Shown here piece by piece: positions 46,401-49,400 of a DNA stretch of 64,000 bases. The stretch is taken from positions 962 to 64,961 of the forward strand of contig DASWIG010000349.1 in NCBI GenBank assembly GCA_036397835.1, written 5' to 3'. The notes beneath the pieces were generated by a model. It did not search any database. It was not told the origin of the DNA and worked only from the letters and a program-made list of their open reading frames with translations. This DNA comes from Thermoanaerobaculia bacterium (lineage in GTDB: Bacteria > Acidobacteriota > Thermoanaerobaculia > Multivoradales > J023). Every line of letters begins with the position of its first letter. The first letter of the stretch is position 1. The translations under genes and the position numbers were made by a program.

Positions 46401-49400
46401 GGCAGATCACCTGCATCGTACGTCCGTCTTTCTGGGCGAACGTCGTGCGCAGGGCTTCGTGCCGCTGGACGATCTTCCGGAAGCTCGCCGCCAGAGCCGC
46501 ACCGTCCAGGGCTCCCTCGAGACGCAGGACGATGGGGATGTTGTAGGCGGTGCTCCGAACTTCGAGCGCGTTGAGAAACCACAGGCGCTCCTGCGCAAAG
46601 GACAGGGGCAGCTCCCGATCGCCGCGGGCGCCAGCCGTCAGCCGGGGCCACTCCGTCCGCGGAGCCCCCGGCGCTTCGACGGCTTTTTGCCCGGCGATCC
46701 GCGAGCTCATGCCGGCGACGGTGGGATCGTCGAAAAGGTCCCGCACGGTCAGCTCGACACGGAACCGCTCCCGCACCCTCGAGTTGACCTGGGTGGCGAG
46801 CAGCGAGTGGCCGCCGAGCTCGAAGAAGCTGTCGTGGACGCCGATCTCCCGGATCCCGAGCAAGCCGCTCCAGATTTCAGCCACGCCGGCTTCCACCGGA
46901 TCGCGGGGAGCGACAGGCGTCGTTCGGAGGCGGGGCCGGTCGTAGAGCCCGTCCGCCGCCGCGCCCGCCGTTTGCCGGGAGGGGAGGTAGAACCCGGCGT
47001 CGGGCGCGGCGGGCTCCACCCAGTAGCGCCGCCGCTGAAAGGGATAGCCGGGAAGCGAGACCCGGCAGCGCCGGACGTGGCGGGCGGCATCTTGCCAGCG
47101 AACCGTGGCCCCCGCCATCCAGAGCTTGCCGCGCGCCTGTTCGAGGAATTTGAGGTCCTCGGCCGGGTCCTCCGAGGAGAGCAGCGAACGCGCCACCCGG
47201 GAAAGCGCTCCGGCCGGCGCCGCCGGATGCCGCAGCGCGAGGTCGGCGAGACCCTCTCCCGGTCCGACTTCGAGGAGCAGGGGCTCAGGGACGTTCCACA
47301 GCTCAGCCAGGGCGTCGGCGAAACGGACCGGCTGGCGCAGGTGGCGGCACCAGTGCTCGGGATCCGTCGCTTCCCGAGGAGTGATCCAGGTACCGCTGAC
47401 GTTGGTCAGCCAGGGCAGGTGGGGCGCACGCAGCTCGACCTGGGAGAGCAGCTCGCGGAAACGTCCGACGACCGGCTCCACGGCGGGGGTGTGGACGGCC
47501 TGCGGTGGCAATTCCTCGAGCAAGCGGGCGCGGCCAGCGACGAGGCGCAACGCGTCGTCGCGGCTCAGGGTGCCGGCAAGACAGGCCGCCAGGTACTCGC
47601 CCAGGCCGTGGCCGAGCAACGTCTCCGGCCGCACACCCCAGGATTCCCAGAGTCGCGCCAGGGCATGGCCCAGGGCGAAGACGGCCGGCTCCGCGAAGCA
47701 TCGCCGCGCCAATGGACCGACGTCCGGCGGTCCGCCCTCGCGGCGAGCATCCCGCGGGTAGAGCAGGGTCCGCAAGTCGATGCCGAGCTCCGGCACCAGC
47801 CGCTCGGCGCAGGCGTCGAGCTCGCCGCGGAAGGTGGGCTCGTCACGGTAAAGGCCGAGCCCCATCCCGACATGGTGTCCGCCCGATCCCGAAAGCAGGA
47901 AACAGACCGGCCGGTCACTTCTCTCCACTGCGGAGCCCCCAAGGTCTCCGGAGTCCCGCCGGCGCAGAACGGCCGCCGCCGCGGCGCGGTCGCGGCACAC
48001 CAGCGCCCGGCGATGAGAGAGGCAGCGGCGCCCGACCTGCAAGGTGAAAGCGACGTCGGCGAGCTGCGTCTCTTCATCCTCTTCGAGGTGCCGGGCCAGG
48101 TTGTCGCTCGCCGCCTCCAGGGCGTCGCGGCTCGCCGCCGACAGCACCACCAGGCAGGGCCGCCGCCCGGTCTCCGAAGAAGGCTCTGACGGCGGCGCCT
48201 GCTCGACGATGACGTGGGCGTTGGTACCGCCGATGCCGAACGAGTGGACCCCGGCCCGGCGGGGGCCGCCCACCGGCCAGTCGAGGAGCCGGTCCGCGAC
48301 CGCGAAGGGAGAGTCCTCGAGCTCCAGCCGGGGGTTCGGGGTACGGAAGTTGAGCGACGGCGGCACCTGTCCGTGGCGGACGGCGAGCACGGTCTTGATC
48401 AGCGAGGCGATGCCGGCGGCCGCGTCGAGGTGACCGATGTTGGGCTTGATCGAGCCCAGGTAGCAACGGTGCGGCTGCTGCTTCGTGCCGCCGGCACCGA
48501 ACGCCCGGCGCAGTGCCGCGACCTCGACGGCGTCCCCCAACGGCGTGCCCATGCCGTGGGTCTCGACGTAGCCCACGTCGGCCGGGACGATTCCCGCCGC
48601 CGCCTGGGCCATGGCGATCGCCCGGGCCTGGCCACGGACGCCGGGAGCGGCGAAACCGGCCCTGTCGGAGCCGTCGTTGTTGACCGCGGAGCCGGTAATC
48701 ACCGCGTAGATCCGGTCGCCGTCGTCCAGTGCCTCGCCCAGGCGCTTGAGCACGACCACGCCGAGGCCGTTGCCCATCACGCAGCCGTCGGCCTCGGCGT
48801 CGAAGGCCCGGCACCGGCCGTCGCGCGAGATCATGCCTCCCGGGCGGTAAAGGGCCCCGCCCCGGCTCGGCACCACCAGAGAGACGCCACCGGCCAGCGC
48901 CAAGTCGCACTGGTAGTCGAGCAGCGACTGACAGGCCAGGTACGTGGCGACGAGGGAGCTCGAGCAGGCTGTCTGGACGGTCATGCACGGGCCGGTCAGG
49001 TGGAGCCTGTAGGCCGCGGAGGTGGCGACGAAGTCCTTGTCGTTGCCCAGGAGCACCTGCATGCCCAGGTCGGCGATCCGCTCCGGATTCCGGCGCAGGT
49101 TGTGGCTGAGATAGGTGCTCATGGTCACCGCGGCAAAGGCGCCGACCGGCCGGCTGTCCTGGGTGGGATCGTGGCCAGCGTCTTCCAGGGCGTGCCAGGC
49201 ACATTCCAGAAACAGCCGCTGCTGGGGATCGATCAGCTCCGCCTCGCGCGGGCTGAAGCCGAAGAGCTCCGCGTCGAAGTTCTCGATGCCGTCGATCACC
49301 CCACGCGCCGGAACGAAGTCAGGATGGTCGACCAGCCGAGCATCGACGCCCGCGGCGAGCAACTCCTCGCGCGAGAAGCGTGTGATCGACTCGACCCCCT

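Follow-up and report, generated by a model that had tools for sequence, protein, structure and literature searches.

We analysed a stretch of 64,000 nucleotides (the window) of contig DASWIG010000349.1, assembled from a Thermoanaerobaculia bacterium, which carries an operon of hybrid nonribosomal peptide synthetase (NRPS) and polyketide synthase (PKS) genes. One of these genes, G3, opens with a module in which an acyltransferase (AT) stands between a ketosynthase (KS) and a carrier domain (T). On sequence evidence this AT, called AT0 here, is a pseudo-acyltransferase without catalytic means: its nucleophilic serine has become glycine, its small lobe is excised, and its GQGSQ motif and Gln63 are mutated. 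What remains is the large alpha/beta-hydrolase-like lobe, kept between the KS-AT and post-AT linkers as a structural spacer. Some 20 similar remnants were found in unrelated bacteria, so the dead AT is a recurring kind and not an oddity of this genome. The reading we favour, with about an even chance of being right, is that the module still elongates and that its T is malonylated in trans, the donor being the cis-AT of the neighbouring genes G4 or G5, FabD or an unlinked AT.

The remnant and its fold

An earlier, sequence-only reading of this DNA had noticed glycine where the nucleophilic serine of an AT belongs, and the translation bears this out: the GHSxG motif reads GHGLGEY (47613-47593, minus strand; positions are those of the window unless a locus is named), with Gly634 at the nucleophile. 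From the Ser-His catalytic dyad only the equivalent of His201 is retained (codon cac, 47493-47491). The GQGSQ motif has become GSGGH and the 'QP' of Gln63 reads 'EP'; Arg117 is retained. The same reading had reported the loss of a segment of about 60 residues that carries the substrate-selecting HAFH motif. The extent was right, with 61 positions (match states 153-213) of a hidden Markov model (HMM) of 209 full ATs missing and 0 of the 61 occupied. The motif position itself is not deleted, because the gap is confined to the small ferredoxin-like lobe, and it survives in degenerate form as QAVH(T), directly past the junction. The deletion is in frame and leaves a clean gap against FabD and against the ATs of G4 and G5.

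The region is still recognised as an AT by profile and by alignment. The family profile Acyl_transf_1 (PF00698) scores 95.2 bits (cut-off 32.7, E 6.9e-27) over profile positions 2-124 of 319, and in a tblastn comparison with E. coli FabD, FabD residues 6-137 and 201-307 align to AT0 while residues 138-200 are absent. The region thus aligns as an AT, not as a linker, on both sides of the deletion, and the earlier identification of a dead in-cis AT in a KS-AT0-T module is supported alike by Pfam, the FabD alignment, the HMM and structure prediction. Because Pfam calls an acyltransferase well above threshold, we did not refile the region as a linker or docking domain.

An AlphaFold2 model of G3 residues 1-870, built from an alignment of 120 homologues, reached a mean pLDDT (predicted local distance difference test) of 88.4 and a pTM (predicted template modelling score) of 0.89. 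Ten-residue blocks of AT0 (residues 530-760) are mostly above 90, the junction included, and residues 660-700 are at or above 91; of the two lobes of an AT, the large one is modelled above 90 and the match states of the small one are absent. The small lobe of AT and FabD proteins is an insertion that leaves and re-enters the large lobe at adjacent points, so that its excision would not unfold the large lobe. We infer that glycine relieves the strained backbone of the nucleophile elbow when serine is no longer needed.

The top fold matches in the Protein Data Bank are full KS-AT didomains, led by ClbI (8xju/8xjy, TM 0.80-0.83) and followed by CurL (4mz0), Lsd14 and DEBS. Among the 60 matches listed in a sequence search with the AT0 core there is no solved chain with the deletion form, and nearly all AT-bearing solved chains among the matches listed align as two stretches around the missing lobe. 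The KS structures of trans-AT type (PksJ, PksL, OzmN, ClbK) match the linker only, from query residue 1 to about 125, and are absent from the 60 AT0-core matches listed. OzmQ KS1 (4oqj) has a fold score of TMt 0.87 over 681 residues; by sequence it matches to about G3 residue 570 only and is likewise absent from the 60 listed. Compared with homologues, similarity is about the same for the retained AT0 residues (46-59%), for the KS (52-63% in alignments of 130 residues or more) and for the linker (46-61%).

Deletion-type ATs in other assembly lines

A scan of genome contigs and a protein search returned no orthologue of the G3 module that exceeded about 55% identity. Ser-to-Gly ATs with the gap were found in four genome loci, some twice, from metagenome-assembled genomes (MAGs) of Holophagales, Acidobacteriaceae, Anaerolineae and Verrucomicrobiota, and in a fifth locus (L055) from a Planctomycetota MAG. 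Deletion-type ATs also occur among metagenome proteins, and the protein P0059 carries GHGLGE and the same gap as G3 at about 50% identity.

Loss of serine and loss of the lobe largely go together. In a set of 218 ATs, the 61-residue block is filled by no more than 12 residues in all nine Ser-to-Gly domains and by 49 or more in all 209 Ser-bearing ones. A search of a representative library with AT0 alone ranked mostly multi-AT giants, and the matches were re-scanned with the AT HMM for a wider census; the HMM was used for classification, as a classifier built on motif distances was too noisy. We assigned to the deletion-type AT0 class those ATs that fill fewer than 25 of the 61 profile positions of the small lobe and have another residue than Ser, usually Gly, at the nucleophile; G3, with 0 of 61 and Gly, belongs to it. 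Among the 603 ATs of the census, 586 had serine and a full lobe, nine glycine and a deleted lobe, three serine and a deleted lobe, two glycine and a full lobe, and one each aspartate with a deleted lobe, aspartate with a full lobe and arginine with a full lobe. Intermediates therefore exist, in the form of lobe-deleted units with serine and full units without it, while the combined loss is the predominant state of dead ATs. Glycine was the preferred replacement (11 of 14 non-Ser units). With G3 included, lobe-deleted ATs total 21, the other 20 coming from independent assemblies, and their edges are similar but not identical.

The residues that these 21 units keep and lose were compared with the 586 full ATs over the 58 most conserved columns. 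Catalytic and substrate-binding columns fall from full to deleted ATs as follows: Gln11 from 85 to 33%, Gln63 from 94 to 38%, His91 from 91 to 38%, Ser92 from 100 to 14%, Arg117 from 98 to 62% and His201 from 100 to 14%. Structural columns (F46, F94, G108, P111, G116, G120, E121, A124, A125) stay at 95-100%. The catalytic columns have thus decayed while the structural ones are kept, as expected of a pseudoenzyme scaffold, and the retained lobe is apparently under selection for its fold and not for catalysis.

In a neighbour-joining tree of the ATs (312 shared columns, about 50% identity) the AT0s are polyphyletic, and the nearest neighbours of each are full Ser-bearing ATs at 42-58% identity; the deletion edges vary by a few residues between AT0s. 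A single ancient AT0 clade was rejected on this tree. Polyphyly and the differing edges make it likely, short of proof, that the AT0 state arose repeatedly, with a simple tree and possible gene conversion between modules blurring the ancestry. Serine-to-glycine change with lobe excision would then be an end state that ATs of this hybrid PKS/NRPS clade have reached repeatedly in evolution. A further proposal, which we hold to be doubtful and advance tentatively, is that deletion-type AT0s are convergent, selectively maintained pseudoenzymes that mark carriers malonylated by a neighbouring cis-AT, a natural form of AT sharing and a living intermediate between cis-AT and trans-AT systems. In the biased sample of 12 multi-AT proteins with a deleted or non-Ser AT, eight also carry an intact AT, as does the assembly line of G3, and this speaks for retained elongation.

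Some of the other loci deserve separate mention. Every visible AT is of the deletion type in L047 (1719-2393 and 5990-6775) and in L054 (3726-4499 and 10268-11059), and the second module of L047 has a KS without active-site His (KS0; QGIGT) followed by a thioesterase-like motif. The proteins P0179 and P0192 also show deletion-type ATs only. L047 and L054 may represent lines of cis-AT ancestry that have since become fully AT-less. P0059 is a complete stand-alone KS-AT0 protein of 831 residues with no carrier (locus L080, 4140-bp contig of ENA ERZ1761309, 1433-3928), and its gene overlaps an upstream, ordinary NRPS gene ending in A-T (adenylation domain, A, and carrier) by 4 nt, an ATGA-type coupling. 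L013, from the Holophagales MAG (500-13264 and 16732-21399), is colinear with G5 for about 4350 residues, 44% of them identical, along a stretch that reads, with C for condensation and KR for ketoreductase domains, C-A-T-C-A-T-C-A-T-KS-AT-KR-T-C-A-T; it then runs on, at the point where G5 has a thioesterase (TE), into a KS-AT0-T-C-A module whose AT deletion is larger.

Elongation and its rivals

The earlier reading had also described the KS and the T as intact. For the catalytic residues this stands: Cys in TACSSS (48972-48955), the first His in HGMGT (48558-48544), the second in NIGH (GHLDAA, 48435-48418) and the Lys are all present, as is the GGHSL of the first T (46815-46801). It does not stand for the HGTGT motif, which reads HGMGT. 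Set beside a canonical cis-AT extension module, G3 has the KS residues and the T serine, with an AT that is inactive. Because the Cys/His/Lys/His set, an intact carrier and a following C domain are all there, elongation is the most likely course for the module. The KS would receive a chain from the upstream NRPS module; the first T would be malonylated in trans by one of the two intact malonyl-type cis-ATs of the line, those of G4 and G5, or by FabD or a discrete AT whose gene lies beyond the window; the KS would perform one malonyl extension, and the beta-ketoacyl-S-T product would be handed to the C domain of the same protein.

As to the donors, the two other ATs of the cluster had both been taken for canonical. 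That of G4 is (GQGSQ, GHSLGE, HAFHS), whereas that of G5 is a variant (GVGEQ, GYSLGE, HAFHS). The form GYSxGE occurs in roughly 10% of the best 120 protein matches and in the ZmaA AT (4qbu), the closest solved structure by sequence. The ZmaA AT uses hydroxymalonyl-ACP (ACP, acyl carrier protein), and we noticed no FkbH-type genes in the window that would serve ACP-linked extender units. As the window has no discrete AT gene, the candidate donors are a neighbouring cis-AT and FabD. A carboxyl-transferase gene (acyl-CoA carboxylase beta subunit type) lies at 57669-59231 on the plus strand, between the LanB-like and arginyl-tRNA synthetase genes, and could supply malonyl- or methylmalonyl-CoA.

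Several points weigh against elongation with trans loading. A tblastn search of the 64 kb with FabD and the G4 AT found only three in-cis AT regions and no discrete AT gene, and loading of the carrier by another module's cis-AT is something we infer. The part of the operon around G3 is rearranged, as the gene directly upstream is a broken duplicate. The census is skewed to multi-AT proteins and to relatives of G3. At the altered KS position, 165 of the 169 KS motifs sampled have Thr or Ser, and none but that of G3 has Met; the only other bulky hydrophobic residue there is the Ile of QGIGT in the KS0-AT0 module of L047, and for these two reasons the G3 KS may, from its motif, be impaired. Dead KSs occur in four of the 22 deletion-type modules, namely L047a (H to Q), P0121_6382 (C to S, H to N), P0259_1407 (C to T) and P0212_2265 (C to S), against about 3 first-His losses among the 169 KSs overall (~2%); dead KSs are thus enriched in such modules, though still a minority.

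The sequence-only reading had allowed three outcomes, namely loading by a trans-acting AT, a non-elongating transfer module, or receipt of the unit by another route. The first two stay live, the first with no discrete AT in view. The main rival is the second: the KS would take the upstream acyl or peptidyl chain on its Cys and hand it uncondensed to the T, and the C domain would continue. Since the KS would transfer without condensation, neither an extender unit nor an AT would be needed. The precedent is ClyE, laid out as KS0 (1-496), AT0 (543-769), DH (dehydratase) and T, whose AT lacks the serine and which stands as a bridge from an ACP to the C domain of an NRPS (PMC7923214). For ClyE and NocP, from the chlorosphaerolactylate and nocuolin clusters, the KS0-AT0-(DH)-T arrangement has been proposed only to transfer the chain (PMC7923214). 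The G3 AT is Ser-less as in this type, the 227-residue AT0 span of ClyE is the size of the deletion type, and the G3 module has no KR, DH or ER (enoylreductase) by Pfam. The unique HGMGT and the four dead KSs also fit a transfer module. The KS0 of this type has lost active-site His, however, and in G3 only the Thr of HGTGT is altered; unlike ClyE and the trans-AT KS0s, it keeps both His and the Lys for decarboxylative condensation. Cys/His/His is moreover retained in 18 of the 22 deletion-type modules (G3 counted), which would be unexpected if they never condensed. We regard uncondensed transfer as possible but rather unlikely.

A second alternative is that the front of the line, G2 and KS-AT0, is evolutionary debris on its way to pseudogenes, with the module skipped or the cluster non-productive. 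G2 lends this some colour. It matches G3 residues 1204-1839 (the C-terminal half of C and the A core) at 81% protein and 86% DNA identity, the similarity ending exactly past the A8 motif, and its N-terminal ~100 residues match the start of the same G3 C domain at 61% identity. It lacks HHxxxDG, through an internal gap in C, and also the C-terminal subdomain of A, which breaks off right behind A8, and the T. Judged by these comparisons, G2 is a rearranged partial duplicate of the C-A part of G3 and not an independent loading device. The ratio of nonsynonymous to synonymous substitution rates (dN/dS) between G2 and G3 is 0.6 in the C part, and the lack of a close orthologue of the module also fits decay. 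Overall, however, dN/dS is 0.37, and it is about 0.2 in the A core. All frames are open, and stop and start codons abut or overlap, the G2 stop (49503-49505) and the G3 GTG (49504-49506) sharing two bases, which suggests translational coupling. Against homologues the AT0 is conserved to the same degree as the KS and the linker, the AlphaFold2 model has high confidence, and the AT0 state is stable in 20 other assembly lines with its structural columns preserved. Decay of the front end is, on balance, quite improbable.

The module could also be of trans-AT type, with the region an AT-docking or flanking domain and a dedicated discrete trans-AT outside the window. Loci with only deletion-type ATs visible (two in L047, at least two in L054, and the proteins P0179 and P0192) and the stand-alone P0059 would suit such a reading. 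An AT-less module has nothing AT-derived beyond the linker, though, and G3 has about 230 residues of true AT large lobe beyond the KS-flanking linker, to which the matches with PksJ, PksL, OzmN and ClbK are confined. By sequence and fold, the nearest relatives of its KS-AT0 belong to cis-AT hybrid modules, namely the didomains of ClbI and CurL as well as proteins with a full AT at 45-58% identity, which argues against a trans-AT KS lineage. The same line has two cis-ATs, and the 64 kb contain no discrete AT. We consider a module of trans-AT type very unlikely.

A collapsed region or base error in the assembly is so improbable that it can be set aside: the deletion keeps the reading frame, the domain carries several further changes in catalytic motifs that are independent of each other, the model is confident across the junction, and with 20 further deletion-type ATs in unrelated assemblies, re-sequencing is unlikely to restore the serine. 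Of the readings considered, we retain elongation with malonylation in trans.

Gene context and known systems

The features of the operon are collected in Table 1. A mechanically called open reading frame at 43438-50961 is misleading, as it reads G2 out of frame for its first 485 codons; by translation and domain check, G3 starts with GTG at 49506, at VSETVRDPASAIAVIG. In residues of G3, Pfam places KS at 10-387, the KS-AT linker at ~390-516, Acyl_transf_1 at 536-667, PP-binding at 875-936, Condensation at 965-1398 and AMP-binding at 1419-1896, followed by the second T. That the first T of G3 might be a tandem duplicate of its last T was rejected, the two showing low similarity by eye in translation.

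Table 1. Operon genes and G3 elements, in window positions.
Feature	Positions	Strand	Basis or remark
LanB-N-like gene	54800-57370	-	first gene of the hybrid NRPS/PKS operon
G1, C-A-T	51590-54799	-	
G2, truncated C*-A*	49503-51593	-	translation, Pfam, comparison with G3
G3, KS-AT0-T-C-A-T hybrid PKS/NRPS protein, 2022 aa	43438-49506	-	translation and Pfam
G3 KS, residues 10-387	48346-49479	-	Pfam and motifs
G3 KS-to-AT linker, residues ~390-528	47923-48339	-	Pfam KAsynt_C_assoc, CurL-like_PKS_C, RhiE-like_linker; high pLDDT
G3 AT0, AT large lobe only, residues ~530-760	47227-47919	-	PF00698, FabD and cluster AT alignments, AlphaFold2
Gly634, codon GGC, at the nucleophilic Ser of GHSxG	47605-47607	-	translation; Ser invariant in 586 full ATs
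Deletion junction ..EELPP/QAVHT.., codons ccg (47505-47503) and cag (47502-47500)	47500-47505	-	alignments, HMM
G3 post-AT linker, residues ~761-835, ending in conserved LPxYPFQRRRYW	47002-47226	-	alignment with full KS-AT modules
G3 first T (carrier like a peptidyl carrier protein), GGHSL at 46801-46815	46699-46884	-	Pfam PP-binding and motif
G3 C-A-T NRPS module	43537-46614	-	Pfam
G4, KS-AT-T-C-A-T-C	35834-43441	-	
G4 cis-AT, candidate trans donor	40886-41839	-	Pfam, alignment, tblastn
G5, A-T-C-A-T-C-A-T-KS-AT-KR-T-C-A-T-TE	18998-35809	-	
G5 cis-AT, second candidate donor	24965-25996	-	alignment, tblastn
MacB/FtsX-type transporter	16563-19025	-	far end of the operon

The LanB-like gene, which sits directly against the first NRPS gene without an intergenic gap, encodes an 856-residue protein with Lant_dehydr_N (glutamylation type) only and no elimination domain, an architecture that we take to be that of the PEARL or small-LanB tRNA-dependent enzymes. 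On the same strand, 2 kb upstream of it, lies an arginyl-tRNA synthetase gene (59279-61159, minus), and further off there is one for cysteinyl-tRNA synthetase (3458-4933, plus). The earlier reading had joined the LanB-like gene and an A domain without A10 in one non-canonical loading scheme, for which nothing was found in support; that A domain belongs to the partial duplicate G2. Loading of the G3 T by the truncated A domain of G2 was likewise rejected as unsupported, since G2 lacks the A C-terminal subdomain that bears the A10 Lys.

Further out, the window (about 70% G+C) holds genes for GGDEF/EAL, TPR/cytochrome and FG-GAP proteins, a setting of myxobacterial appearance. Beside the transporter end are genes for an AsnB-type asparagine synthase and a TauD-family dioxygenase (9566-12482, plus strand), possible tailoring genes; they fall within a stretch from ~8000 to 20000 that has 63-66% G+C, lower than the about 70% elsewhere. 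A gene for an HMG-CoA-synthase-like protein followed by a NUDIX gene (61273-62973, plus) possibly belongs to the mevalonate pathway with isopentenyl-diphosphate isomerase rather than to a beta-branching cassette. A YhgA-like transposase fragment stands at the window start (2-670, plus).

For structure prediction, the G3 module is not to be read colinearly: it would add one malonyl unit through another AT, or none, and the predicted scaffold shifts by C2 (beta-keto) accordingly. The census, small as it is, puts the share of lobe-deleted, Ser-less scaffolds at perhaps 2-3% of the ATs of this hybrid PKS/NRPS clade and suggests that they arose more than once; annotation tools that call such remnants 'AT' over-predict extender loading. 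The natural deletion boundaries show where an AT can be trimmed while the KS-AT core stays folded, a help in AT-null engineering. A limited literature search found no published description of a lobe-deleted Ser-to-Gly AT, and an algal PKS paper (PMC4661987) holds nothing on AT remnants. The recurrent, apparently convergent combination of Ser-to-Gly change and lobe excision is a generalisation that we did not find described within the literature accessible to us.

Among known systems, the best relatives of the G3 module are ClbI (8xju/8xjy), CurL (4mz0) and the ZmaA AT (4qbu), at TM 0.80-0.83 and 33-39% identity. They share with G3 the KS, linker domain, AT large lobe and post-AT linker, but have the Ser nucleophile and, between the two aligned stretches, the small lobe. 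The PksJ, PksL, OzmN and ClbK modules resemble G3 in having no working AT of their own, so that elongation would need loading in trans; they match over the linker only, whereas G3, which groups with cis-AT modules, keeps a further ~230 residues of AT lobe. ClyE and NocP share with G3 a natural Ser-less in-cis AT, of similarly short span by its annotation in ClyE, and a T that feeds an NRPS C domain. The KS of ClyE is without active-site His, whereas that of G3 keeps Cys/His/Lys/His.

Engineered modules offer the remaining parallel. Kumar et al. (2003) are reported to have rescued AT-null DEBS modules with malonyl-CoA:ACP transacylase. Engineered AT-null modules rescued by a trans-AT are also reported in a preprint (bioRxiv 10.1101/2021.08.09.455754). 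Such modules are like G3 in that an inactive in-cis AT is left as a scaffold and the carrier is loaded by another AT; they differ in being laboratory Ser-to-Ala point mutants with the small lobe intact, while the G3 change is natural, to Gly, with the lobe absent. The G3 AT0 is best placed as a further example of the recognised natural AT0 domains rather than as a new kind of system.

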